From: Patescibacteria group bacterium
Lineage (GTDB): Bacteria > Patescibacteriota > Patescibacteriia > 2-01-FULL-39-33
Direction of reading: 5' to 3'
Assembly (NCBI GenBank): GCA_041650895.1
Contig: JBAZKF010000001.1
Location: 637,181 to 701,180, forward strand
Length of the DNA: 64,000 nt
Part shown: positions 36,441 to 64,000 of the stretch, piece after piece
Layout: each line of letters starts with the position of its first letter
Position numbering within the stretch: the first letter of the stretch is position 1
Translations under genes and position numbers: made by a program
The notes under the pieces: model-generated
The model's database searches: none
What the model was told of the DNA's origin: nothing
What the model saw: only the letters and a program-made list of their open reading frames with translations

Positions 36441-36910
36441 TAGAGGGTAAAAACTTAACACCAAACTCTTTCCCAAAAGATAATCAAAATTAAGTTGTTT
36501 TATCCGCCAATACTAATATTGTAGCGGTATAAAAAAGGGAAAACAGTGGTATCTGAAATGAATTTTGTCCAGGACAAAGTTCGCCAAATCGGATCCCTCT
36601 GTTTTTTCTTAACTTGAAAAATGACTGTTAGGAAAAGTATTTTGACAACTGAATAGTGGTAAAAAGCACCAAACCAAAGAATTTAAATTTGAGTTTTTAT
36701 GAATTCGTTTCCGCCCCCGCGGAGTAAATCGAATTCAATACAATACTTTCAATCCAACTTTATGACAGCCGGTTCTCCGGTGCGCCCTTAGCGCAAGTCA
36801 TAAAGCGAAAAAAACGGTTGGCAACTGATCGTAATCTAGTTGCAAAGCCAGTTGAATGAATTTTTTTTATCTCACTTCGGTGTTGATAAGGAACCCTTTC
36901 ATTCTTCTTT

Positions 36911-38384
<1,474 letters not shown>

Positions 38385-46933: not shown

Positions 46934-47914
46934 ATGAAAAGTTCAGCCGTGGTTTTATGTTTAATCCTGGCGTCCGCTTTGATTTTATCGTCGGGTTGCG
47001 CCACTAATCGAAGAGTTGAAACGGTCGTTACCACCACATCGGAAAACGGCATAACGACTGTTACTGAAGAAACGGTTATTACGGAAGAAGTTGTCTATCC
47101 CGATCCTGATCATTATTATTACGTTGTCGGCAGTGTTACGCATCGCGTCTACTTCGGCGTGGATACGGTTTGGGTCCGTCCGGTGCCGGTTGATTATGTG
47201 GTATTAAATTATTATTGGCGTCCGACGTCTTATTACCGCAGTCATTTTCATCGGTCGCCCGGTCATCATCACGGTTATGTTGACGTGAATGTGGGTATTT
47301 ATGGTGTTTCAATGACTCATCATCGGCCAAGATCTTATTCTTCGCCATCGCGGCATGAACCGCCGCGATTGCGACCTGAGTCCAGGCATGGGCAACCGCA
47401 ACACATGTCACCGCCACGACAGCAGACGCAACATGGCAGTCCCAGCATGAATCGCTCGGTAACGCCGTCGCGGCCGTCTTATGCGTCACCGTCTCGGCCA
47501 CAAACACCGCAGACGCCGGCGAGATCAGTAGCCCCAGCTCGACCGATGCGTAGTGCGCCCCAAACTGTCCGGCCGACTTCGCCCGGACAGCAACACAATT
47601 CCAATGTAAACCATTCGCCGGTACCTTCGCGTCAAGCACCGTCGCGGCCGTCTCATGCGTCACCGTCTCGGCCACAAACACCGCAGACGCCGGCGAGATC
47701 AGTAGCCCCAGCTCGACCGACAACGCGAAGTATGTCGCCGGTTCGTTTACCACAACGCAGTGCGCCGGCAAGATCGGTGGCACCCGCCCGGTCGTCTCGG
47801 CCAACTCATAGCGTGTCGCCCGCTCGTTCGCCACAACGCAGTGCGCCCGTCAATCGATCCCGGTCCGCTCGTCCTACAAATAGTGGCGGACGTGGTAATG
47901 GTCGTAACAAATAA
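46934..47914 (+). CDS. secreted lipoprotein with Pro/Ser/Arg-rich low-complexity C-terminal repeats
   Basis: SD AAGGAGA. Lipobox LSSGC. An internal ~67-nt segment is directly repeated (47479-47545 and 47653-47719), which encodes the repeated SPSRPQTPQTPARSVAPARP. Confidence 0.6.
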   Translation: MKSSAVVLCLILASALILSSGCATNRRVETVVTTTSENGITTVTEETVITEEVVYPDPDHYYYVVGSVTHRVYFGVDTVWVRPVPVDYVVLNYYWRPTSYYRSHFHRSPGHHHGYVDVNVGIYGVSMTHHRPRSYSSPSRHEPPRLRPESRHGQPQHMSPPRQQTQHGSPSMNRSVTPSRPSYASPSRPQTPQTPARSVAPARPMRSAPQTVRPTSPGQQHNSNVNHSPVPSRQAPSRPSHASPSRPQTPQTPARSVAPARPTTRSMSPVRLPQRSAPARSVAPARSSRPTHSVSPARSPQRSAPVNRSRSARPTNSGGRGNGRNK

Positions 47915-50777: not shown

Positions 50778-52400
50778 CTATTCCGCAGAAGTCGACGGAG
50801 CGGTCGTCGGCTCTACTCTTTCCGCTTGAGGCAGGCCCCCCATAACCGGCTTAAAGCTGACATTAGCTTCCAATTGATTCTTCCAAGCGCCAGAGTCGGC
50901 TGATTCCATCCAATAAACGCATTGGTTGGCTGCATCAGTCAATATCACATCAGGACGGTTGCCGGCGATATAGTGTTTAGGGTCATTACTGTCCAAGGTA
51001 ACGACAGTGGTCAGCCAATAGAAGCGGATCTTATCGTTTACCCTGGTGATATAGGGCCGTTGCTCGACCGGTCGATTGATTGTCCAGTCAAAGAATTTAT
51101 GATCGCCGATAACTTTATTGGTTACGGCGGTTACTCCCAGCATTGGTTCTTTCTGATGATGAGAAAAAATGAATATTTTACTCAAGCCGTCAGCCGGCAC
51201 GAACAAAGAGACGGATAATCCTTGCGATTTTTCCGAGTAAGGCTGAAGCGAGAAGTAGTGATAAAGAGCGTCTTTGCCGCCGAGTTGCCCCAGACGGAAA
51301 AAGATAGTGAAGGGCTGATCGTTCATATCCTCGGGCATATTGGCGATTCTGACATCGCCGTTATGTATCCAAGGTAGAGGAGCGGATAGTCCTTTATGGA
51401 ACTTGAAGCTTTCAGCAATGTAACGGGATACTTTATAAGACAAGACATTCTGTCCATCCAGGAATGGGTGGTTTTTCATTTTGGCCGGCGGCACATAATA
51501 GCCGCAACCGAACATGACTCGCCTGATGCTTTGCCAGACGTTGTCTGGCGATTGTTCAATTATCTGTACTCCGCCAAAAATCGGCCGTGGAAACAGTAAT
51601 CCTTTCCAACGGATCAGTGGTACTACTTGCACCATCTTTCCAGAATCGTCTTTAAGGTAGATAACTCCGTCCGGTTCATAATTGAAGTAACGCCATAACC
51701 CGAAAGCGCGGCTGACGGCGGTGTAAGTATTTCTGCTCCATTTAAGGTTTTCTCCAGTTTCGAATTTGACGTTAATTAGGTTTTGCAACCCCCAATCCGG
51801 AGCCGGAGATGTGCCATCAACATTATAAACTTGGCGAATTCCAGAGAAGATACGGGGTAAAAGAGGAGTAGGCTCAATGCCCATAGTAAAACGGTATTGA
51901 CTGCCGATCCGCACAAAATGCGGTTCAGCCGGTTGGACGTTGTCTTGCACTAATTCCCGCGCTTGCGAGAAAACAGAGTTAAGCGGTAAGATCCGCTCGT
52001 AAGCCGTTTCCGGTAATTGCTCCAATTCTACGAAATCATTGACTTTGTAGCAGTAATACTGCGCCAGATAGTGATGAATCGGCTTGCCGACCTCATAAAT
52101 ACCGAAGCCAATAAGCAGATAGAGTACTACTAACAGTAGTTTACCGCGCCATCGATATTTGCGGTACAGCCAACGGAAAATGCCTATGGCCGCAATAATC
52201 GCCAAGAAAGAACCAAAGAACTTTCTGACAGTAATGACGGATCCGTATACATACCCGCGAGCTATAAATAGCTCTAAGCCGGTTGCTATCAGGAGAATAG
52301 TAAAAATCAACCAGTGACGTTTAGCGAAATTCATTGACCAGACGGCGCTGTGTTTGAAAAGCCAGAAAAGCCGACCGTGTTTATCTTGTTTTTCACTCAT
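50778..52400 (-). CDS. hypothetical polytopic membrane protein with large extracytoplasmic domain (540 aa)
   Basis: SD AGGAGATAG. Four N-terminal TM helices, then a ~400-aa Trp/Tyr-rich domain. Unassigned. Confidence 0.55.
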   Translation of the reverse strand: MSEKQDKHGRLFWLFKHSAVWSMNFAKRHWLIFTILLIATGLELFIARGYVYGSVITVRKFFGSFLAIIAAIGIFRWLYRKYRWRGKLLLVVLYLLIGFGIYEVGKPIHHYLAQYYCYKVNDFVELEQLPETAYERILPLNSVFSQARELVQDNVQPAEPHFVRIGSQYRFTMGIEPTPLLPRIFSGIRQVYNVDGTSPAPDWGLQNLINVKFETGENLKWSRNTYTAVSRAFGLWRYFNYEPDGVIYLKDDSGKMVQVVPLIRWKGLLFPRPIFGGVQIIEQSPDNVWQSIRRVMFGCGYYVPPAKMKNHPFLDGQNVLSYKVSRYIAESFKFHKGLSAPLPWIHNGDVRIANMPEDMNDQPFTIFFRLGQLGGKDALYHYFSLQPYSEKSQGLSVSLFVPADGLSKIFIFSHHQKEPMLGVTAVTNKVIGDHKFFDWTINRPVEQRPYITRVNDKIRFYWLTTVVTLDSNDPKHYIAGNRPDVILTDAANQCVYWMESADSGAWKNQLEANVSFKPVMGGLPQAERVEPTTAPSTSAE

Positions 52401-52411
52401 GGTGCTATCTC

Positions 52412-53185
52412 CTATTCCCTTTCTTGGTCGGAGTTATTCACTACTCCTTCAGGGCTGCCAGGACTGCTTTCACCTCGGGCAAAAGCTTTTAGATTAGCTC
52501 TCGCCGCCCTTAAGCGTTCATCATTCAACGGAGTGGCTTTGGCCTTGTCGCCTACAAGATTAATGCTGGTTTGCACAGTTGCAAGTTCTTGTTGCAGGGC
52601 GGATAGCTCGGAAGTCGCCGTTGTTGCCGGCAGTTCTTCTGTTTCTGCAGGAGTCGCGGTAATAACCACTGGTTGTTCCGGCTGATTAGCCGTTCTAACT
52701 GCGTCTTTAAGGGCGCTTCGCCAATTGGCTAAACCGCCGGTTAAGTTATTCCACCAGTTTCTGGCTTTCTTTTTGGCTTCATTGCCGACTTGGATTTCTC
52801 CGGTTTCAATCCTGTCGATTACGTCTAGATGCTTCAGTAATCTTTCACGCTTGCCCAAGAGTCGCATAACCATGGGACCGCAATAGAAGCCGACCATCGT
52901 AAAAACGACAGCCATTAACAACAAGAAGGAATTGACTGCGGGGCCATGCACCATCATATAGAGGCATAATCGCCAATTAATGAAACCCAGAAGCAAGGCC
53001 GAGTAAAAGCGTCCTCGCGCTTTACGACCTAAGATGAAACCGGAGACTTGATCGGCCGGTAGGCGCTTACTGTGGGTCAGATTGTAAACGAAAGAGAATA
53101 CAACTACCCCAAAGTATTTATCAAGACCGAACCAGACGATACCGAGAGCAGTGAACAACAGGGCATACGACAAAAAAATTAGCAT
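52412..53185 (-). CDS. hypothetical membrane protein (3-4 TM) with cytoplasmic Ala/Thr/Glu-rich coiled tail
   Basis: SD AAGGAGA. 11-nt gap to the downstream gene. Confidence 0.5.
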   Translation of the reverse strand: MLIFLSYALLFTALGIVWFGLDKYFGVVVFSFVYNLTHSKRLPADQVSGFILGRKARGRFYSALLLGFINWRLCLYMMVHGPAVNSFLLLMAVVFTMVGFYCGPMVMRLLGKRERLLKHLDVIDRIETGEIQVGNEAKKKARNWWNNLTGGLANWRSALKDAVRTANQPEQPVVITATPAETEELPATTATSELSALQQELATVQTSINLVGDKAKATPLNDERLRAARANLKAFARGESSPGSPEGVVNNSDQERE

Positions 53186-53243
53186 GGTGATTCTCCTTGG
53201 TTCGCGGTTGGCAACCGCATTAGTTGAAAGTTATTCCTTTACG

Positions 53244-54536
53244 TTAATCAGTTAGTTCTTCCTTAGACGCTCTTTCTCTTAAGATGTTCATTTTTGGTCG
53301 GTAATGTTTCTTGAGCGTGGCGATGGCCCAGAGCTGTTTTGCTTTAGGCCAACCGTCATAGCGCTTATAGAACAGATTCTTATCGCAGATAAAAGTGATA
53401 AGCAGCCGCCAGGGCTGTAGTCGCGCAATCAGCATGCCGACCAATTCCCATATTTCTTCTTCCAGGTCCGGACGGGGTTGCAAGAGCAAAAGTTTAAGTT
53501 CATCTGACAATTCATCAAAACTTTCAACTTCGTTTTGTTCTAAGCGTTTGATCAGCCGTTCCAGATCTTTGTAGATTTTGGGAATTTTGGTGCCAAGGCT
53601 TCTCAGACGCGCCTTTTTTTGCGGTTCCGTCAAATGAAGATAATCAATTTCGGGATCGGCGGCGGAAAGGATATCAATCAGCAGGCAATCGCGTTTTTCT
53701 TCTAGGATTTCGGGGTGCTCCCGATACCAGGAAAGATTAACAGTGATCAGTCCGGCTTCTTCCAATCGATCGATTAAATGCTTGTTGGTCAATGGGAAAA
53801 TGTCAATTTGTGTTGCTCGATTTTTTTTGGCCAGCTTGCCATCCTCAACAACCATGAAGTCTCCCCCCGGCAGATTACGGAAGACAAAAACGCCGTTAAG
53901 CGCCCGACTGTAAAAACAGCCTAATTTTTCGTAGCGCCAGTCCGGTATTTCTACCGTACGGTATCGCAAGTTGCCATACTTTTGAGCGCTAGCGATAAGC
54001 TGGCGGGTTAATTCCCTGTTAGCCCAGTTATTGCCGGGGGCAAGAAATTCTTCCGTCAGTTTTCTTTGATGTTGAGCCGCTTGAATCAAGTCATCGCAAT
54101 AACTTATAACCGTGATATCTTCTACTAAAAGCAGATCCAGGATTGTTTCATAAGATGTCAGTTCCTGATCAATATCCAGGGCTATGCCGGAAGTCGTAGT
54201 GATATCCGCAATAACCTGGCGGAACTTTTTGAAGAACTCCGCCATCAGCGAACGATCAAACGAACTGAAGGGAAAGTAAATCGGTTTATGCTCTTGATCG
54301 GGGGAAAGAATTATTGCTAGTTGATTAGCCACGCCATGTGACAGATACAGCGGATTGCCGGTTTCTTGGGCGATTTCCGGCGACCAACCGATGCCATCAA
54401 TGGAAAATGAGGTTAGTTGAGTCGGGGGAAGTCCCAATCGTTTAAGGCAATCGTTATATCTTTCAATAAGTTGCGGCGTGTCCACCAGAGTCAATCCTTG
54501 GCCGAATAATCCGGCATCAGCAAGTAATTTATCCAT
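53244..54536 (-). CDS. hypothetical soluble protein (430 aa) with N-terminal FGQGL motif
   Basis: SD AAAGGAATAAA. Its N-terminus MDKLLADAGLFGQGLTLVDTPQL shares a motif with the N-terminus of the 56557-57789 protein. Confidence 0.55.
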   Translation of the reverse strand: MDKLLADAGLFGQGLTLVDTPQLIERYNDCLKRLGLPPTQLTSFSIDGIGWSPEIAQETGNPLYLSHGVANQLAIILSPDQEHKPIYFPFSSFDRSLMAEFFKKFRQVIADITTTSGIALDIDQELTSYETILDLLLVEDITVISYCDDLIQAAQHQRKLTEEFLAPGNNWANRELTRQLIASAQKYGNLRYRTVEIPDWRYEKLGCFYSRALNGVFVFRNLPGGDFMVVEDGKLAKKNRATQIDIFPLTNKHLIDRLEEAGLITVNLSWYREHPEILEEKRDCLLIDILSAADPEIDYLHLTEPQKKARLRSLGTKIPKIYKDLERLIKRLEQNEVESFDELSDELKLLLLQPRPDLEEEIWELVGMLIARLQPWRLLITFICDKNLFYKRYDGWPKAKQLWAIATLKKHYRPKMNILRERASKEELTD

Positions 54537-54617
54537 TTTATTCCTTTCAGTTCAACCCCGCCAATATTTTGGAGGGGGTTAGGTTTTTTACCATAACCCC
54601 CTCCGTTAGGAGAGGTC

Positions 54618-56567
54618 TTACTTGTGCGATTCCAGCCAGTTTTGGACTGCCTGGTTGGCTTCCAGTTGAATCATCATTTGTTCGCTTGCCCGTTCCACTT
54701 CGCGACGATGACCCAAGTCAACAATTGCTACCATATTGTCCAGGTAGCGCATCGCCTCTTGGAACCTGATTTCTGCGAACGATTTGCCTCGCATATTCTG
54801 TTGCATTAATCCTAATACCATAATCTTTTGTTGGTCGTAGGGTTGACGGAAAAATATTTCCGGATCGGACATCCATTCTTCAGGTAAGTCAAAGTCTAAT
54901 AGCCGATCATCAACGGCCCGTTGAATATTGCGGGTGTCGCGCGAACTGAATTTGGGGAATTGTCTTTGGACTTCTTGATAGAGCTTAGCAAAAAACTTTT
55001 GTTCATTAATATCATGTTCTTTGTTCACTCGGTTGAAAATATCCAAAATAGTCCGTTCCCTGGGTTGCTGATAGCCGACGTAGGTCTCGGCCATACTGCC
55101 GATTAAACGTTGGGCAAATAAGTATTTGTAATCGTCAGGATCGGTCATGGCGATGAAAGCAGGATCGATTTCGGCGATGCGCTTCCACCATAGGTGGTCC
55201 TGATCCAGGAAATCTTGCCACGTTGTGGCTCCTTCAATTTTGAAGCGGGTCACGATACGCGACAGTAGAGCCGAATCCAGTTGGTCGGGAATATTAGTCA
55301 GAAAGAACACTACGGAGTTGCCTCGCCAAATAGCCGAAGCTCCTTCCAAATTGGTCAGAGCCGCACCGATAACCTCACGGACACCGGCAGATACGCCTTG
55401 GCGAGTCCTGTCTTCATAATTAACTTCAGCATCATCGGCCGGTCCGAAAGAAATCCTGTCAGGATTTAAGATACGTTGCCACCATTCCTCGGCCCGTTCT
55501 CTGGATCCGCCTTGGTAGGTAGAAACGATATTGGGGGGATGAGGATCAAATACATAAGGTAATTCCAACCACTGACAGAGATCATAAAGCATGGTGGAAA
55601 AGGCGCCAATCATCATGGTTTTACCCGTACCGGGAATGCCAAACCCTATGCTGGCGGTCGGCATACCTCCTAAATCAAACATGACGTTGCGTCTTTCCGC
55701 TACTTTATAACAAGCTGTGCGTACTGCCAATCGTTGAAAAAAGCGTTTGGCATCGCGATTGCCGACAATAGTGTTGATATCAACCCGCTTGAACTCCACG
55801 CTAATCGCGTTGTTTAGTCCGTTTTCAAAACCGGAAATGGTAAAATCTTCCCCTGCCAACTTGTAAGTTATATCGGTAAAGAATTGAGTGTATTCCAACG
55901 AGTCGCGACGCAGTTTGATTTCATCCAGTGCTCCTTTAGCCGCCACTTGGACGGCTTTGAGCAGATCCAAATCATTCCTGACTTTTCCTGATTCCTGGAC
56001 GAATTTTCCCATATAGACTAGCAGGCAGTTAAAACCGCGCAGATAGTCGGTCAGACAGATTTCCGGATAGCCCGGAAAGTCCATGGATAGGGAATCCAAC
56101 TTTTCACCCTTGTAACGCGACAATGACCAAAAGACGAAAGAGGCGAAGCTGAACTGGGCGACGGCCGCAGCCGTTGCCAGTTTTTTGGAAAACTCCGCTT
56201 TTTGCCCTTCATTCAGTCGTTGGCGCGAATTGTCATCAAGCAGTTTAGCCAATCCCGAACTTTTAGCATACATCTCCACCACGTAACAGCCAATGCCGAT
56301 TCCCGTGTATAAGGAGTTAAGCAGTTGGTTGACGTTGCCTGAATTAATTGTTCTGTTGGGATTGTATGGTTTAACGAGCTCCAGCCAATTGATTCTTTCC
56401 TCCATCGGCGCTGATTCGCTAAACTTTAATCCGCCAGCGGTCGAAGGAGGTGTTAGCGGCTTCTTTGGCAGCCAACCGGCGTTTTTTATTAATTTGTCGG
56501 CAAAAGCATCAAAAGATCTGAGTTGCTCTGCCGTAATCGGCACGCAGGATCCGTTTTTATCTCCCAT
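54618..56567 (-). CDS. classic-clade AAA+ ATPase with ~280-aa N-terminal domain and C-terminal extension
   Basis: SD GGAGGAC. Walker A GFGIPGTGKT. Sensor-1 FFLTN. Arg-finger region SALLSRI. A hydrophobic segment AAAVAQFSFASFVFWSL lies upstream of the ATPase core. Confidence 0.75.
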   Translation of the reverse strand: MGDKNGSCVPITAEQLRSFDAFADKLIKNAGWLPKKPLTPPSTAGGLKFSESAPMEERINWLELVKPYNPNRTINSGNVNQLLNSLYTGIGIGCYVVEMYAKSSGLAKLLDDNSRQRLNEGQKAEFSKKLATAAAVAQFSFASFVFWSLSRYKGEKLDSLSMDFPGYPEICLTDYLRGFNCLLVYMGKFVQESGKVRNDLDLLKAVQVAAKGALDEIKLRRDSLEYTQFFTDITYKLAGEDFTISGFENGLNNAISVEFKRVDINTIVGNRDAKRFFQRLAVRTACYKVAERRNVMFDLGGMPTASIGFGIPGTGKTMMIGAFSTMLYDLCQWLELPYVFDPHPPNIVSTYQGGSRERAEEWWQRILNPDRISFGPADDAEVNYEDRTRQGVSAGVREVIGAALTNLEGASAIWRGNSVVFFLTNIPDQLDSALLSRIVTRFKIEGATTWQDFLDQDHLWWKRIAEIDPAFIAMTDPDDYKYLFAQRLIGSMAETYVGYQQPRERTILDIFNRVNKEHDINEQKFFAKLYQEVQRQFPKFSSRDTRNIQRAVDDRLLDFDLPEEWMSDPEIFFRQPYDQQKIMVLGLMQQNMRGKSFAEIRFQEAMRYLDNMVAIVDLGHRREVERASEQMMIQLEANQAVQNWLESHK

Positions 56568-57789
56568 TAATCAAGTCCTCCCCGTTAAAGGTTATGTATT
56601 TGAAGCTGGCAAATCCCAACTCGGAGAGTTGGTGATCATTGACGGCTTGTTGCAATAAACAATGAGGCAGAATGCAATAATGTCTGACTGCGGAAACGTG
56701 CCGTTGCTGGCATTCCATGGAGAGTTCGTTGATCTTAAAAACTTCTCGGACTTTGCGCCGCAAGGGCCGGCCATAGACTTCTTGCCGTTCGGAAATAACT
56801 TCTTCTTCAGTCAGCAATAAGACAAAGTCGTCTTCTTTCCGGCTGAATTCCGTCATAATCCGACACCAAGCTTCTTGCCATTTGTCAGTGTTTGCTGACA
56901 GGTTATCGCAAAGGAACTTGGAATATAACGGCCCTAAACCGATACGCCTGATAATTTTAGGATGGATATTAACCAAACGATCATCAATATCCAAAGCCAG
57001 GATTCCGAGCTGGGGAGCCCGCGAGCCGACATTGGTAATGATGTGCAAGAATTCTTTCCAGGTTTGCCCGTACTCTTCCAATGGTTCGCAATCATTGTCA
57101 TGTTCAAAATTCATCAGATATAAGTAGGGGCGGTTAGTGGTAAAATCAAAACAAGCCCAAGCGAAACTGTAACATCGCGCCTTAGGATTGTCTGATTTTA
57201 ACGCTGTCAATTCTCCAGCCGTAAACGGCAGGAATAATTTGTCCTCCGCTAACATGGAAAAATAAGATCTTTCGCCTAAAATCGCCAGAATATCTTCTGC
57301 TTCAGTCAGTTGATTGAACATGTATTCCAGCGCTGTCCTTTTCAGACGGTCCGATCCGGGCAAACTAGCCAGTCGTTCATCGCGTTGCAGATAGTCAATC
57401 CTTAGATTATCAAGCTCAATAAAATTAGGAAAGCCGGACTCGGTCAAGTCCACTCGCAGGCGATGCTGGTTGTTGTGGATATATTTCATTCTTAGGCATT
57501 CCATGGTGTAAGAAAAACGTTTTAGAAAATCAATAATGATGCCGGTTTGATTATCGGCGTTGTTGCCGATTTTATGACACCAGGATAGCAGAATTTTTAT
57601 TACCCGGAGCTGCTGAGCGAAATACTTGACGTATTTGTCAGTATCTTCCAGTAAGGCAAAATCCATACTGCCTCCATCAGTAAAATCTCCGCCGACTAAG
57701 CTATTGAGCTCGTCAGCAGATCGTCTTAAATCAGCGGGGGTAATATTAACCGTACTTAATCCTTGGCCGAAAAATGATAGTCCTCCCAT
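56557..57789 (-). CDS. hypothetical protein (410 aa) with N-terminal FGQGL motif
   Basis: Start set at MGGLSFFGQGLSTVNITPADL, 7 nt after SD AAAGGAG. Overlaps the AAA+ gene by 11 nt. Confidence 0.5.
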   Translation of the reverse strand: MGGLSFFGQGLSTVNITPADLRRSADELNSLVGGDFTDGGSMDFALLEDTDKYVKYFAQQLRVIKILLSWCHKIGNNADNQTGIIIDFLKRFSYTMECLRMKYIHNNQHRLRVDLTESGFPNFIELDNLRIDYLQRDERLASLPGSDRLKRTALEYMFNQLTEAEDILAILGERSYFSMLAEDKLFLPFTAGELTALKSDNPKARCYSFAWACFDFTTNRPYLYLMNFEHDNDCEPLEEYGQTWKEFLHIITNVGSRAPQLGILALDIDDRLVNIHPKIIRRIGLGPLYSKFLCDNLSANTDKWQEAWCRIMTEFSRKEDDFVLLLTEEEVISERQEVYGRPLRRKVREVFKINELSMECQQRHVSAVRHYCILPHCLLQQAVNDHQLSELGFASFKYITFNGEDLINGR

Positions 57790-57880
57790 AACAACTCCTT
57801 TCATGGCCGTTAGCCATACTGAAAGAAAAAGGAGGAGATCCAAGATTAAGGATCTCCTCCGTTGCGTGTAGTTGTGTGTA

Positions 57881-59206
57881 TTATTTACCCTCATCTCCTC
57901 CGAAGAATGATTCTTTTCTCAGATCAAAACCGTAGTTTTTTTGAAACAGTTCAATTTGTTCCTCTACGTCATTTCTGAATTGTCGATCCTGTTGATTGGA
58001 AGCCGCCATAATTTCGTGGTAGAGTTTGAGCCACTCCGGTATTTCTTGAAGCGCTTTAACCAACGCTTTTTGGGCCGCGGCTCGGATTTCCGCCATACTG
58101 GCCATACTTCTGGCGTCAACTCCCCGGCCGGCTTTGTTCAATTCTTCGGCCGTCGCCAAATCTTGATGGGATTTAGTGGCTTCCAACCAGGAACGCACCG
58201 TTGTCTGGCGGTATTCCACCTGTTTGGTGATCATGGCTTGCCAGGTGAGATTGATGGTCAGAAGGTCATTAAGTGTTTGGACATGAAGGTCCAATTGATG
58301 CGCAAAGTTTTGCGCTTCCTGGGCGATTGCCATACAAATATTATATTTGCCTTGCAAGGCATTCAGTGATTGCTTCAAATCGGAAGTTTTCTGGTCTTGC
58401 TTGGCAAAGCCTTTGTCTGTCCTATCCATTGTTACCAATGTCTGTTCGGCCTCGGCCAACTCACCTTTGAGCGCGACAATCTGTTGGTCAAGTCTTTCGC
58501 AAGCTTCGTTTGCTTGCGTGTGGGTTTCAAACGCCGCCCGTTTCTGCGCCTTGTCTTGTTCCAGTTGCATTTTCTGTGACTGAGCGCGAGCTTGCATGGC
58601 TTTCAAAAGCCGACCGCAAGCCAATTTGTAAGCCGTCAGACTATCTTCAATGGTTGCGTTGCTGAGGCGATCGCGCATTGCCTTATTGATACGTTCTTTG
58701 GTCGCCGCTTCCAATTGTTGGGCCGACGCTAAGTCAGTCTGGGCGTTGCGGATGGCGCTTTGGCGGAACAAACGTTTGGCCTTGGCCTTGGCTAAGGCAA
58801 GTTCAGCCTCTTTAATTCTGTTTCCGGCTTGTACCAGGGACGCCTGTTCTTGTGGCGTCATTTCTTTGAGTTGGATTACCTCGGCTCCCAATCCTTCCAG
58901 TATGATATTGAGACTTGCCATCATGCCGGCCAAGTCCGTTTTTTCTTTGGCCAAACTGGCGCGAACTTGCTCCCAGTCGGCCTTCTTTAAGCGACTCTTG
59001 ATGTCTATACTAAGAGTCGGACCTTGGCTTTTGGTGGCTGTTTCCAGACCTTGTCGCATATCGCCAAGTATGGCGTTGATATCAAAGCCCAAATTTATTG
59101 ATGCCGGTTCTTGCTCCAACTTTTGGCTGGCGGTATCCAAATTTTGTAGCATACTATCCAAGAAATTAGATCCGTCAACTCCACCGCCCGTTTGTTCTGT
59201 CGTCAT
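57881..59206 (-). CDS. long coiled-coil protein (Gln/Ala/Lys/Glu-rich heptads), first gene of the operon
   Basis: SD AAGGAG. Predicted extended coiled coils across most of its 441 aa. No catalytic motif. Confidence 0.55.
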   Translation of the reverse strand: MTTEQTGGGVDGSNFLDSMLQNLDTASQKLEQEPASINLGFDINAILGDMRQGLETATKSQGPTLSIDIKSRLKKADWEQVRASLAKEKTDLAGMMASLNIILEGLGAEVIQLKEMTPQEQASLVQAGNRIKEAELALAKAKAKRLFRQSAIRNAQTDLASAQQLEAATKERINKAMRDRLSNATIEDSLTAYKLACGRLLKAMQARAQSQKMQLEQDKAQKRAAFETHTQANEACERLDQQIVALKGELAEAEQTLVTMDRTDKGFAKQDQKTSDLKQSLNALQGKYNICMAIAQEAQNFAHQLDLHVQTLNDLLTINLTWQAMITKQVEYRQTTVRSWLEATKSHQDLATAEELNKAGRGVDARSMASMAEIRAAAQKALVKALQEIPEWLKLYHEIMAASNQQDRQFRNDVEEQIELFQKNYGFDLRKESFFGGDEGK

Positions 59207-59544: not shown

Positions 59545-59575
59545 AAAAAAGCCGACCAGGCAAGCTGGTCGGCGT
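59545..59575 (-). terminator. rho-independent terminator (minus strand) separating the membrane-protein triplet from the AAA+ operon
   Basis: Minus strand reads CCTTACGCCGACCAGCTTGCCTGGTCGGCTTTTTT. Confidence 0.7.
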
Positions 59576-59589
59576 AAGGTGCTGATTGT

Positions 59590-60462
59590 TTATGAGCCGA
59601 AGCCGTTGGCGTCGGGCCCTTTTGGTTTGCTCCGTCCCGCCTTCCGCGTCATCCTCGTTTTCTTCGGGCCGTCTTTCGATTCCCCTTCCGGCTTATCAAC
59701 GGGTTGCTCTGGGGGTTGCTCCGGGGCGGGATCGGCGGTAGCAGCAGCGCCGTTGGCGGTAGCAACAGCCTGGCCGGCCGGAATGTTTTTTACCGTATCA
59801 GTTCGCTCGTAAGCGGTTTGATCTTCCGGACAGCTTTGTAACTGATCCCTTATTTCGTCATAATCCCTCTGTAATTCGTTAATCATCGTTTGCAGCTTCT
59901 CATTGTCTTCCCGTTGCTTTTTTAGAGTCAACTGGTACTCGCGATACTTGCGATAGGAGAATAAGGAAACGAAGTAAGCAACGATGATCGGCAATATCAG
60001 CCACCACGAGAAAAGTAACAGAATAAGCAATAAGCTGGCCATCCCTAGGGCCAGACCGGCAACCATACCGTGGATTATTGCGCCCATTAAACAGACAAAA
60101 ATTGCGCCTAACAGACTACTGATAACACCGTAGCCAAGCTCCATTTCAATAGACTTAATAACGGCTTTAGCATTCTCTTCTCTGTACTCTTGGTATGTCG
60201 GGATAGGGAACCCCTTAATCTTTTTGGTGATGTTTTTTTCCCATAGGTAACTCCATAGATAATCATGCGCATGGAGACATTCCATCCACCACTGGGGCGG
60301 TAACCAGAGAACTTTGAAACTCCACCAGTGGTCGTGTCGTTGTTTGATGCTATTAACCAGGACTATGACCGGTATGGTCGACCAAGTAAAGAGCGTTAAT
60401 GAGCCTATCAATATTCCGATGTAGAGAGAGTGCCAAAGGCAAAGAGTGAGCAGAGTGTTCAT
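59590..60462 (-). CDS. membrane protein, paralog 3 of a tandem triplet (4 TM, WLPPxWW motif, basic Pro/Ala-rich tail)
   Basis: Shares VLVNSIKQRH...WLPPQWW and the helix layout with the two upstream genes. Confidence 0.6.
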   Translation of the reverse strand: MNTLLTLCLWHSLYIGILIGSLTLFTWSTIPVIVLVNSIKQRHDHWWSFKVLWLPPQWWMECLHAHDYLWSYLWEKNITKKIKGFPIPTYQEYREENAKAVIKSIEMELGYGVISSLLGAIFVCLMGAIIHGMVAGLALGMASLLLILLLFSWWLILPIIVAYFVSLFSYRKYREYQLTLKKQREDNEKLQTMINELQRDYDEIRDQLQSCPEDQTAYERTDTVKNIPAGQAVATANGAAATADPAPEQPPEQPVDKPEGESKDGPKKTRMTRKAGRSKPKGPDANGFGS

Positions 60463-61253
60463 TGTTCGTCCTTTCCTGTTGGGGGCGGTGTTTCTTTTTT
60501 CTTTTTCGTTGTTGGCTGTTTTCTGGTGTGCGTTGGTTTGTTCTTTGGCTTATTATCTAGCGTCTTTTTGGGGGTATCCGCTCGTTTCTGTCTCGGTGGT
60601 CCTATATTCTTCGCACAAACATTGGTAACAGCGGTAGTTTGATCAGTCGTATTAGCCTCTGTTTCTTCTAATCGTTTGCGCAAATCATTAACGCAGTCAC
60701 ACATTCTTTCGCTCATAGCTATCAGCTGGTTCATAGTTGTCAGATTCTCGTCATATCTTTTTTTCTTTTCTTGGATTGATTGACATTTGTGATGAAAAAA
60801 TCGGTAAATGAGATAGGTAATAATGATCGGAAAAGTCAGCCACCATAGATAGCCCAGTAACAGACTGGCCGTCACCAAAGCCAGACTGACGGCCGTGCCG
60901 CAGGTTACTGCTATTATCAGACAAGAGAGAAGTACGGCGAAAAATCCGTCAATGACCTCGTCTTTCGTTACCTCATTGATAGCTCTAATTATCTCCTTAG
61001 GTCTTGCGTTAGCGTACGTTTGGTAGGTTCTGATATCACCAATTATCCAAGGGAAACAGTCTATTATGTAGTCGATGGCATAAAAGCAGGCCATCCACCA
61101 CCATGGAGGTAACCAGTCAACCTCGAAAGGTCGTCGGCGGTTATGACGTTGTTTGATACCATTGACCAAGACTATGGTTGGGAGAACCGAATAAGCAAAA
61201 AACGTCAATGCGGCTACTAACGTGCCGATGTAAAAGATAGTTAACGCGTTCAT
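60459..61253 (-). CDS. membrane protein, paralog 2 of the tandem triplet
   Basis: VLVNGIKQRH...WLPPWWW. The C-terminus KKKKETPPPTGKDEQ is identical to paralog 1, and ~50 nt of the 3' DNA is identical. Confidence 0.6.
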   Translation of the reverse strand: MNALTIFYIGTLVAALTFFAYSVLPTIVLVNGIKQRHNRRRPFEVDWLPPWWWMACFYAIDYIIDCFPWIIGDIRTYQTYANARPKEIIRAINEVTKDEVIDGFFAVLLSCLIIAVTCGTAVSLALVTASLLLGYLWWLTFPIIITYLIYRFFHHKCQSIQEKKKRYDENLTTMNQLIAMSERMCDCVNDLRKRLEETEANTTDQTTAVTNVCAKNIGPPRQKRADTPKKTLDNKPKNKPTHTRKQPTTKKKKETPPPTGKDEQ

Positions 61254-61978
61254 TGTTCGTCCTTTCCTGTTGGGGGCGGTGTTTCTTTTTTCTTTTTCGT
61301 CTTCGCTCTCGGCCTTCCGGCGCGCGTCGGCTTTTTTGGGTTTGGGGAGGCGTTGGTTGTTGCAATTGACGTTGCTATAGCGAACAGCGCTGATTTCAAT
61401 TCTATAATCTCCTCGTCAATAACCTTTTGCCTAAGCTGATAGCTTTTGATAGCGCGCCAAATAATGTAAGCAACTCCGCCGATCAGCCATAACCACCAAG
61501 TGTATTTGAGTAGTAAGCCGATTATCGAAACAATCATAAGCAGTAATGTGCCGAATGAAAACAAGAGAAGCCAGGTGCCAGCCGCGACCATTGCCGGGAG
61601 TAATACTCCTAATACAAACGTAATAAAAATCATTGCACTAAGTGAGATATCCAGAGGGTGCTCATTAAGCAGTCTCTTTTTACCGCATTCTACCCAGCCG
61701 TCCAGCGTCTCATTGAAATTATCTTTGACTCCCGAGGTGAAAAGAATAATGTAGTAATAAATAAAAGCATGATAAGCGATTAGCCAATCGGGTGGTAGCC
61801 AAACAGCTTTATAATCTTTCCGACGGAATCGGCATTTGGCGCCGTTTACGATAATAACCAGTAAATGGATGAAAAAGGCTGAAAAAATGGCAAAAAATGC
61901 CAGTTCGGTGCCAAGCCGTACCAGATGATCAAAGTATAACGAAAAAGTCCAACTAATTGCTAAAAGTAACATTTCCAT
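61250..61978 (-). CDS. membrane protein, paralog 1 of the tandem triplet
   Basis: Start at MEMLLL after SD AAGGAGAAC. WLPPDW motif. Same C-terminal KKKKETPPPTGKDEQ. Confidence 0.55.
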   Translation of the reverse strand: MEMLLLAISWTFSLYFDHLVRLGTELAFFAIFSAFFIHLLVIIVNGAKCRFRRKDYKAVWLPPDWLIAYHAFIYYYIILFTSGVKDNFNETLDGWVECGKKRLLNEHPLDISLSAMIFITFVLGVLLPAMVAAGTWLLLFSFGTLLLMIVSIIGLLLKYTWWLWLIGGVAYIIWRAIKSYQLRQKVIDEEIIELKSALFAIATSIATTNASPNPKKPTRAGRPRAKTKKKKETPPPTGKDEQ

Positions 61979-62297
61979 GATGTTCTCCTTGCCTTTTATG
62001 GCTGTTTTGGTTTGCGCAGTAATGTTTTTAAGTTTTGAATGTGCCGATCTTCGTACCACAATATCATATAAGCGGTGAAAAGTCAATGGTTAGTGGAGAA
62101 GTTGGGGAAAAGTCAGCAGTTTCATTATATAAGTCAGAAAATAAAGGAATTGGGAGACAGAAGCTATTTTTTGATTGATCTGTTTGGTTTTTGTCGACAA
62201 AGTTATAAAACTTGTTTAAATTTAGGCAAATTATTCATTAATTTTGTCTTGCCGCGTGCTTATTTATCCGTATATTTTCTATTTTTTTATTTATCTC

Positions 62298-62326
62298 TTG
62301 ACATTGTATAAAAAATAACATATAAT
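62298..62326 (+). promoter_or_regulatory. perfect consensus sigma70 promoter TTGACA-N17-TATAAT upstream of the 23S rRNA gene
   Basis: Exact -35 and -10 hexamers with 17-nt spacing. Followed by a 15-codon mini-ORF (62447-62494) with an SD, then a hairpin/T-run at 62513-62541. The element TTGACAACTGAATAGTG (62623-62639) is shared with the 16S upstream region. Confidence 0.55.
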
Positions 62327-62789
62327 TGTAGACATCTGACTGACACCGTTGAATAACTGAAGATTCGGCTTTGCAGAGCCAAAATTCAGCTTAGTTTGTC
62401 TCTTTAATCCATAAATGCCGGAGGGCATATTGGAAAGGAACAATAATATGAGATTAAACATCACCAATAATTCTTCTCCAAGTCAAACGGACTAACCTTT
62501 TTAGTGTCCGCCAGAACCGCTTGGAGAAAGCGGTTTTTTTGTTAGCTTCCGAATCCGATCGATAATGGAATTTATCGCTCAAATTGCGGAAGTTAATGTC
62601 AAATATCCTGAACCTGGGAACATTGACAACTGAATAGTGTATAGTAAAGAAATGGGTAATTTAATGTCGCGCCAAAATTTATGGGCGTGGCAGCGAATTG
62701 CAATTATTAATGAGTACATACTTTTAGTATTTTAGTAATAAAATACAAAATAAGGAAAAACTCTTTTTAAGAGTTATCCAGATTCTTGC

Positions 62790-64000
62790 GATTAAACATT
62801 AAGGGCGAATGGTGGATGCCTAGACATCAAAAGGCGATGAAGGACGTAGCAGCCTGCGAAAAGCTTCGGGGAGGTGGCAAGCAACCTTTGATCCGGAGAT
62901 ATCCGAATGGGGAAACCCGGCGCGGCAAACCCGCGTCATTTGTGACTGAATTCATAGGTTACAAACGCAAACCCAGCGAAGTGAAACATCTCAGTAGCTG
63001 GAGGAAAAGAAAAAATTGAATCCTTAGTTCCGTTTTCTGCGTAAGCAGAACACGGATCTATGGATTGCATTCCGCGAGTAGTGGCGAGCGAAAGCGGAGC
63101 AGCCTAAACCTTAGCAGTGTTGACGGTGTGAAACTTTTCCCGCAAGGGGAAGGCGTAGCGCCGGCATAAAGGAGTGCCCGTTGCTGCTTTGGGGTGATGA
63201 TTATAACTTTCGGATTGCACTTATATCCGAGCGGAATAAAATTTTTAGCGGAACGGTTTTGGAACAGCCGGCCAAAGCGGGTGAAAGCCCCGTACGCGAA
63301 AAGAATCGTACTTCCGTCGTTATAATCTAGAGTACTACAGGACTCGTGAAATCTTGTAGGAATCCGCCATGACTATATGGCAAGGCTAAATACTTTTGAT
63401 GATCGATAGCGAACAAGTACCGTGAGGGAAAGGTGAAAAGCAGCCCGGTTAGGGCGATGAAATAGTATCTGAAACCATTTGCTTACAAACGAGTCGGAGT
63501 CCAAGGTCGTAGCAATACGAATTCTGGATGACGGCGTTCCTATTGAAGAATGAGCCAACGAGTTTATTCTGCGTTGCTTGCTTAATCCCTTCGGGGAGAA
63601 GGCATAGTGAAAGCGAGGATTAATAGTCCGAACAATTGTAGCGCGGATAAGACCCGAAACGAAGTGATCTATCCATGGCCAGGGTGAACCAGATGTAACA
63701 GTCTGGGAAGGCCCGAACCCACAAGCTGTGCAACACTTGGGGATGAGCTGTGGATAGCGGAGAAATTCCAATCGAACTTCGTGATAGCTGGTTCTCCTCG
63801 AAATAGCTTCAGGGCTAGCTTCGAAAATAGACCCGGGGGTAGAGCACTGAATGAGGACAGGTCCGCAAGGTTACTGTCTTCAATCAAACTCCGAATACCG
63901 GTAATCTTTATTTCGGAAGTCAGACTATGGGCGCTAAGGTCCATCAGTCAAAAGGGAAACAGCCCAGATCGCCAATTAAGGTCCCTAAATCTATGTTAAG
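62790..64000 (+). rRNA. rrl: 23S ribosomal RNA, 5' portion (runs off the window end)
   Basis: GGTGGATGCCTAGAC...GCGATGAAGGACGT...CCGAATGGGGAAACCC...GAAACATCTCAGTA are conserved 23S domain I motifs. ORF-track hits inside this span are spurious. Confidence 0.95.

Follow-up and report, generated by a model that had tools for sequence, protein, structure and literature searches.

This study concerns three consecutive genes, here called A, B and C, on the minus strand of a 64,000-nucleotide (nt) stretch of a Patescibacteria genome (contig JBAZKF010000001.1, positions 637,181 to 701,180), the whole of which we refer to as the window. Gene A (61250-61978 in the list of open reading frames (ORFs); 242 amino acids (aa)) is the first and most divergent of the three, gene B (60459-61253; 264 aa) and gene C (59590-60462; 290 aa) follow it, and the trio is placed between a divergently oriented 23S rRNA gene and a block of further minus-strand genes, with a GC content close to that of its flanks. 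An earlier note on this DNA had described three minus-strand genes with 4-nt overlaps and one shared layout, and this is borne out by the ORF list, by the reading of the junctions and by homology. At both junctions the stop and start codons overlap by 4 nt as ATGA, each junction reading ...GAA CAA TGA AC. All three genes have a Shine-Dalgarno match 7-14 nt before the ATG; in B and C it is the sequence GGAAAGGA and falls within the final codons of the gene before. CACCUCCUUUC is present at the 3′ end of the 16S rRNA. A stop/start overlap combined with a Shine-Dalgarno sequence inside the 3′ end of the upstream ORF is the structure looked for in translational coupling, and it is present at both junctions. 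The start of gene A is an ATG preceded by AAGGAG, in agreement with the public gene call P0004, and gene B is identical to the public protein P0001 from a Patescibacteria metagenome-assembled genome (MAG). Independent assemblies agree on the array: the MEGAHIT contig L012, from a separate assembly, is 100% identical to the NCBI contig over the whole of it, and the JGI contig L013 spans gene B and the B/C junction.

The three proteins are homologous and collinear over their whole cores, with aa identities to C of 34% for B and 25% for A. BLASTP links B to C at E=1e-32 and A to B at E=6e-18; the A-C match (E=0.013) is weak, but collinear and with the same motifs. Each protein runs from an N-terminal hydrophobic helix through a basic stretch and a Trp-rich WLPPxWW segment to a variable loop of ~40 residues, and from there through a hydrophobic block of 55-60 residues ending LLL..WWL to a helical segment and a charged low-complexity tail. 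The conserved segment originally described for all three, (V)LVNxIKQRH with WLPPxWW, holds for B and C, which have VLVN(G/S)IKQRH and WLPPxWW, but is looser than claimed in A, which has IIVNGAKCRF and WLPPDWL. Among the ten family members that we collected few positions are invariant or nearly so, namely a Lys that follows helix 1, the W-x-P-P motif and, around the hydrophobic block, a preceding Gly and a closing L...WWL. The basic tail, likewise ascribed to each protein, is found in A, whose Lys/Pro tail ends TKKKKETPPPTGKDEQ, and in B, both being clearly net-basic, but not in C, where the tail is charge-neutral as a whole. The four transmembrane (TM) helices that had been proposed are not securely established: on a simple insertion-energy scale one strong N-terminal segment and two segments in the C-terminal hydrophobic block stand out, and the WLPPxWW segment stays below the TM score. 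Lys and Arg are concentrated in two places, the loop that follows helix 1, with 8-12 per protein, and the region behind the last helix; from these counts the positive-inside rule would place the loop, the coiled coil or helical segment and the tail, together most of the protein mass, in the cytoplasm. An AlphaFold2 (AF2) model of B is all-helical and of moderate quality (pLDDT 75, pTM 0.54).

Putative transcription signals flank the trio on both sides. A promoter-like site on the minus strand (62058-62086; TTGACT, 17 nt, TATTGT, with a TG before the second hexamer), recognised by consensus match only, lies ~80 nt upstream of the ATG of A, and the sequence around it is conserved in L003, the contig of the closest relative. 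A longer TTG start for gene A (62086) was ruled out, as it overlaps the −35 box of this site and lacks a conserved Shine-Dalgarno context. At the other end, 17 nt past the stop codon of C, stands an intrinsic-terminator-like hairpin (59551-59573, minus strand) with a 9-bp stem containing 7 G-C pairs, followed by TTTTTTAT; its stem is kept in L003, where change is confined to the loop. We infer that the trio may form a transcription unit of its own, from the promoter-like site to the strong terminator-like hairpin. Divergent from the promoter-like site, on the plus strand at 62298-62326 and ~460 nt upstream of the 23S start, there is a perfect sigma-70 consensus (TTGACA, 17 nt, TATAAT; 12/12).

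An exact repeat across the gene junctions

The A/B and B/C junctions carry an exact direct repeat (53/53 nt). Copy 1 (61248-61300, minus strand) takes in the final 16 codons of A with its stop, the Shine-Dalgarno sequence GGAAAGGA and the ATG AAC of B; in copy 2 (60457-60509, minus strand) the corresponding parts are the final 16 codons of B with its stop, the same Shine-Dalgarno sequence and the ATG AAC of C. A and B thereby both end TKKKKETPPPTGKDEQ*, the C-terminal 16 residues of B being the same as those of A, and the identity of the last ~50 nt and of the C-termini that had been reported for two of the copies is thus real. Outside the tract the junction regions are 57% identical. A run of 53 nt was reached in 0/100,000 column shuffles, the longest being 36 nt, and the identity of the tract is far above the paralog background and ends sharply, as gene conversion predicts.

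The two halves of the tract behave differently in related genomes. The 3′ 28-29 nt (CCCCAACAGGAAAGGACGAACAATGAA) recur unchanged in L003, as non-coding sequence directly upstream of the single family gene of that contig, and are ~77% conserved in L001, a Buchananbacteria contig, whose A′/B′ junction carries CAAACAAGAAAGGATAAGCAATGAAT. What L003 and L001 share is solely the part on the side of the ribosome-binding site (RBS), ...CAACAGGAAAGGACGAACAATGAA. Because this half is kept both in the non-coding sequence of L003 and at the L001 junction, it constitutes the conserved translation-initiation region, ribosome-binding region and start, of the orthology group to which B and C belong (group 2; see below). 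The 5′ 24 nt (ACGAAAAAGAAAAAAGAAACACCG) are unconserved in L003 and L001, yet the same in both window copies, synonymous sites included, and for this reason the most plausible source of the 53-nt identity is a short event, conversion or copying, that recently spanned the junction. Gene conversion, or other very recent copying, had been put forward to account for the identical tails, and as a kind of explanation it is supported by the contrast between the exact tract and its 57% identical flanks. The shared peptide TKKKKETPPPTGKDEQ would be a by-product of the copied tract and not a selected feature of the proteins.

Age and distribution of the paralogs

Four genomes were found to bear the family, with 3, 3, 3 and 1 copies, and two further relatives (L009 and L010) have 0. 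The Buchananbacteria contig (L001/L004) carries a trio with ATGA overlaps and products of 249, 205 and 218 aa. In L005 there is a more diverged trio with spaced genes; matched to the family profile, the first two of these reach 36 and 26 bits, and 400 shuffled controls ≤7 bits. L003 comes from the closest relative, its AAA+ protein (encoded in the gene cluster next to the trio; see below) being 90% identical to that of the window, and has a single copy and no gene B: the segment 62078-60525 of the window, which holds A and B, corresponds to just 110 nt there, and a second assembly (L014) gives the same picture. L009 and L010 possess the neighbouring cluster and no family member, and in L010 the 23S gene also adjoins the cluster. 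Because related genomes carry 0 to 3 copies, the family is dispensable.

Gene A (group 1) has as its ortholog the first gene of the L001 trio, to which it is 50% identical, the AAA+ proteins of the same two genomes being merely 62% identical. Gene C, a group-2 paralog, is orthologous to the L001 middle gene (L1_B; 47% identical) and to the single copy of L003 (48%); gene B belongs to this group too but is divergent, being 39% identical to L1_B. A separate orthology group, without a member in the window, unites the third gene of the L001 trio with that of L005. Synonymous divergence (dS) between the trio copies is 2.4-3.6, meaning that synonymous sites are saturated. Because of their 25-34% identity, this saturation and the existence of orthologs of single copies elsewhere, A, B and C are old paralogs, older than the tract that two of their junctions share. 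The earlier note had read the identical ends as a sign of recent duplication; for the genes themselves this is refuted by their identity and dS values, by the 50% identical ortholog of A in L001 and by the trios of two more distant genomes, and we rejected it. Gene A existed already in the common ancestor, and the simplest account of L003 is that it lost A and B.

Evolutionary rate of gene C

Comparison of the window with L003 shows that C has changed much faster than its surroundings. Nucleotide identity is 54-67% within C, mostly 81-92% in five well-conserved downstream genes and 87-88% in the adjacent intergenic spacer. Nonsynonymous divergence (dN) is 0.38-0.44 for C, 0.05-0.09 for the five neighbours and 0.16-0.18 for a sixth, which encodes a 257-aa membrane protein (TM257); the protein change of C is 4-9x faster than that of its neighbours. 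The ratio of the two rates, omega, is 0.34-0.55 for C and 0.05-0.28 for the six neighbouring genes. The dS values of the neighbouring genes span those of C (0.8-1.1) and, because of this, replacement of C by a foreign allele is an unneeded explanation. Positive selection on C is equally unsupported, given its overall omega and the finding that no 40-codon window with an estimable dS exceeds an omega of 1 (dS is not computable in two windows). Taken together, these values indicate that gene C is a real coding gene under constraint that is relaxed and not absent. A second hot spot of divergence from L003 lies at 52412-52760 (minus strand), in the disordered C-terminal tail of TM257, where nucleotide identity is 58-71% and there are indels.

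Searches for relatives of the family

An exhaustive profile search of 1.84 billion representative proteins returned six matches, namely A, B, C and one protein from each of three other genomes, and word-indexed searches of 5.8 billion proteins found only the genome of the window and one Buchananbacteria MAG. A scan of GTDB genomes and of metagenomes found no family member outside the four organisms; the metagenomes gave just L014 and L015, which correspond to L003 and L004, respectively. The family thus seems limited to a small Patescibacteria clade related to Buchananbacteria.

Membership in a known transporter or protease family, which would have explained the trio differently, finds no support in Pfam, NCBIfam or a PDB profile search. 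No Pfam-A or NCBIfam family, transporters and proteases included, scored at its curated cutoff, and gene A had no match at all. The best sub-threshold Pfam matches were DUF3810 (14.6 and 17.2 bits; cutoff 28) and Selenoprotein_S (17.2 bits; cutoff 29.8), and NCBIfam matches reached ≤19 bits against cutoffs of ≥42. In the PDB profile search the best hit (E 0.006) was a compositional match to a Nav-channel linker. Foldseek with the model of a trio protein gave a best E of 0.66, a weak test of fold because the model is only moderate (pLDDT 75). Among the PADLOC defence models the best match was CARF_TM, to C only and at an E of 0.0098, which falls short of an assignment. The sub-threshold library matches of A, B and C are composition-driven, and by these searches the small, helical membrane proteins of the trio belong to an orphan family.

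The neighbouring AAA+/DUF6638 cluster

Downstream of the trio, and considered here as context only, lies a cluster of six minus-strand genes (50778-59206). In the direction of transcription these encode a coiled-coil protein of 441 aa (57881-59206), a 445-aa protein (56557-57894), a 649-aa AAA+ protein with one AAA domain (54618-56567; Pfam 2.4e-5, the nearest PDB sequences being PEX6), a DUF6638 protein (53244-54536; Pfam 6.3e-38), TM257 (52412-53185) and a further membrane protein (50778-52400). All six are also found, with no trio beside them, in L006, L008, L009 and L010, and some of them in L011. These trio-less lineages are other Patescibacteria, an unassigned lineage (L008) and a Flavobacteriia contig (L006), whose DUF6638 protein matches one annotated in Winogradskyella. 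Across this range, from Patescibacteria to Flavobacteriia, the cluster encodes a coiled-coil protein of ~440 aa, proteins of ~350-445 and ~650 aa (the latter being AAA+), the DUF6638 protein, and two membrane proteins of ~200-260 and ~540-560 aa. The AF2 model of the DUF6638 protein is confident (pLDDT 92, pTM 0.87), and Foldseek found no match for it in the PDB; a literature search found no paper mentioning DUF6638. PDB sequence searches, Pfam scans of the Flavobacteriia homologs and literature searches gave nothing informative on the function of the cluster, which, apart from its AAA and DUF6638 domains, is without annotated function. Two related contigs have a gene for a small DUF5654 membrane protein a short way upstream of the cluster and on the strand opposite to it (L005 3073-3366 and L010 1845-2135, both minus strand); there is none in the 383-nt spacer of the window.

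Other features of the window

The 16S (36908-38382) and 23S (62789-64000, with the gene start at 62789) rRNA genes are unlinked, lying ~24 kb apart on the same strand, and genes for tRNA-Ile, tRNA-Phe and tRNA-Pro follow the 16S gene. In L003 two ORFs (1056-1607 and 2406-2891) lie inside the 23S rRNA region, and in L012, from the window's own genome, an ORF at 1-201 has a LAGLIDADG_1 Pfam match; together these suggest intron-borne homing endonucleases in the 23S gene. Between 18000 and 24000 the G+C content of the window drops to 25-27%, compared with ~40-46% elsewhere, over several ORFs, and this segment may be a foreign or otherwise unusual island. At 46934-47914, on the plus strand, a 326-aa protein rich in Pro, Ser and Arg has a signal-like N-terminus and internal repeats (PSRPQTPQTPARSVAPARP), and no Pfam match.

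Discussion

We favour, with moderate confidence, a reading in which the trio, old paralogs whose junctions carry a recent tract, encodes dispensable membrane proteins that are produced in coupled amounts and are probably partners in a mixed complex. The ATGA stop/start coupling would cause the three to be translated in linked amounts. Because they are paralogous and their translation is likely to be coupled, they would most likely assemble into a mixed (hetero-oligomeric) membrane complex, held together by TM packing and by the helical segments that follow the last TM helix. The tract at the junctions could have arisen by short-tract gene conversion, or by a junction-inclusive duplication that was homogenised later. 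As for the role of such a complex, a non-essential membrane scaffold or adaptor is, speculatively, the most likely, and one that might serve the adjacent AAA+/DUF6638 module is more speculative still.

Several points weigh against this reading or narrow it. The count of TM helices may be anywhere from 3 to 5, and the AF2 model of B is of moderate confidence and finds no matching fold. L003 manages with one copy, so a mixed complex cannot be a requirement. One genome cannot separate conversion from a very recent re-duplication of the junction. Finally, remote family members scoring ~25-36 bits, like the first two genes of L005, would be missed by the library-wide search, and the distribution over four genomes is a lower bound.

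The alternative that survives best, although we regard it as doubtful, is that the trio is a clade-specific accessory of the AAA+/DUF6638 machine, its cytoplasmic coiled coils and disordered charged tails serving to recruit the classical-clade AAA+ ATPase to the membrane or being threaded by it. In 4/4 of the family-bearing genomes the family lies directly upstream of the cluster and on the same strand, which is a weak test given that the genomes are few and related. The 23S rRNA gene, the trio and the cluster are syntenic in all four, but 23S and cluster are adjacent in the clade even where there is no trio, and the adjacency may therefore be inherited synteny. The earlier note had placed the trio immediately upstream of the AAA+ operon; between it and the AAA+ gene lie two genes, the 383-nt spacer and the terminator. 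The hairpin (7 G-C pairs and a T-run) and the spacer speak against co-transcription of trio and cluster, although some read-through may occur; together with the promoter-like site they set the two apart, and in L005 an opposite-strand gene stands between them. The AAA domain is closest to PEX6/CDC48-type ATPases, and B has its Selenoprotein_S match over the last TM helix and the following helix, but at 17 bits against a cutoff of 29.8. The layout of TM257 is similar, with TM helices followed by a disordered tail, but there is no homology between it and the trio (hhalign probability 1%), and descent of the trio from TM257 was ruled out on the same figure.

The cluster is not always accompanied by the trio: L006, L008, L009, L010 and L011 have no family member despite the presence of the cluster (partial in L011), and L003 keeps an intact cluster under strong purifying selection without A and B. 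Because it is widespread without the trio and is under such selection where A and B are missing, the cluster does not need the trio. A functional link between the two would rest on their adjacency and is possible but doubtful. We consider somewhat less probable again the specific form of this idea in which a widespread, membrane-associated AAA+/DUF6638 machine has A, B and C as its clade-specific membrane adaptors or substrates, their coiled coils and charged tails being engaged by the ATPase.

A different alternative concerns the repeat, the 53-nt identity of which might be held by purifying selection on a cis element (an initiation or coupling signal, or the target of a regulatory RNA) instead of reflecting recent conversion. 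The identity of the 3′ 28-29 nt in the non-coding sequence of L003, and their ~77% conservation in L001, do imply that the RBS-side part is constrained. Selection of this kind fails to account for the 5′ 24 nt, which relatives do not conserve and which are still identical between the two window copies. Moreover, the sense RNA of the junction tract is predicted to be unstructured (z = +1.1) and has no Rfam match, on which grounds a structured RNA in the repeat was ruled out. We therefore judge a selected cis element to be an improbable explanation of the full tract, and retain recent copying.

Still less probable is an origin of the trio as the remnant of a phage or mobile element beside the 23S gene, for example as holin/spanin-like or superinfection-exclusion membrane proteins. 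A patchy distribution, varying copy number and fast evolution would all fit such an origin, as would weak PHROGs matches to phrog_5405 (3.6e-5) and to Rz-like spanins (3e-4). However, these matches are found in C only, where they are confined to a TM helix and the helix that follows, and A has none; 2.9 million viral contigs (IMG/VR) encode no relative; there is no integrase or phage gene nearby; the GC content is like that of the flanks; and position and order are shared by descent among genomes with AAA+ proteins of only 60-62% identity. That the array or its repeat is an artefact, in which strain variants of one gene were joined in tandem through a k-mer-sized repeat, is hardly credible: the exact 53-nt repeat is indeed near common de Bruijn k-mer sizes and L013 does begin inside the A/B copy of it, but the same sequence is present in three assemblies (a 957-kb NCBI contig, a 242-kb MEGAHIT k141 contig and, through the B/C junction, the JGI contig), B and C are merely 34% identical and therefore not strain alleles, and relatives have trios without any exact repeat.

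Taken alone, the trio carries little weight, in that it adds one lineage-restricted, fast-evolving membrane family to the unknowns of the Patescibacteria. It does provide a neat small example of how a conversion tract over a stop/start junction may give two diverged proteins one and the same C-terminal peptide, the likely cause being the RBS of the next gene and not protein function. Should the trio prove to be an add-on to the AAA+/DUF6638 cluster it would be more important, since the cluster is conserved over distant phyla, and if its proteins were adaptors or substrates of that machine the trio would offer a handle on what the conserved six-gene system does.

Comparison with known systems

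SelS/VIMP recruits p97, and PEX15/PEX26 recruits PEX1/PEX6. The trio proteins would have in common with these recruiters the plan of a membrane anchor that leads through a cytoplasmic segment, helical or coiled-coil, to a disordered tail, and the gene for a PEX6/CDC48-like AAA+ protein lies near the trio. They differ in being polytopic and not single-pass, in having no significant match to such proteins (17 bits against 29.8) and no identified ATPase-binding motif, and in that the ATPase cluster is widespread without them. A last TM helix followed by a heptad-like helical segment is also found in DivIC/FtsB and in phage Rz spanins, to which matches are sub-threshold only; the trio proteins have an additional N-terminal TM segment and Trp-rich segments, and their genes lie in neither a cell-division nor a lysis context.

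Short-tract gene conversion is a general mechanism by which duplicated bacterial genes evolve in concert. The trio resembles other instances in having a tract of perfect identity within diverged paralogs on the same strand. Its tract differs in being very short (53 nt) and in straddling a gene boundary, so that what is homogenised is a C-terminus together with the RBS and start of the next gene, and not the bulk of the paralogs.

With regard to the family itself, the closest parallel is the set of 106 protein families enriched in the candidate phyla radiation (CPR), most of them poorly annotated and 76 of them with ≥1 predicted TM helix (Meheust et al., 2019; PMC6744442). Likened to these by description, the trio family is similarly poorly annotated, predicted to be membrane-located and restricted to one CPR sub-lineage. 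It is far narrower in distribution, being found in four genomes, and is distinguished by its coupled tandem arrangement of three genes and by the conversion tract at their junctions. The trio is one more of the many poorly annotated, membrane-located and lineage-restricted CPR families, to which it adds a short conversion tract of the textbook type.

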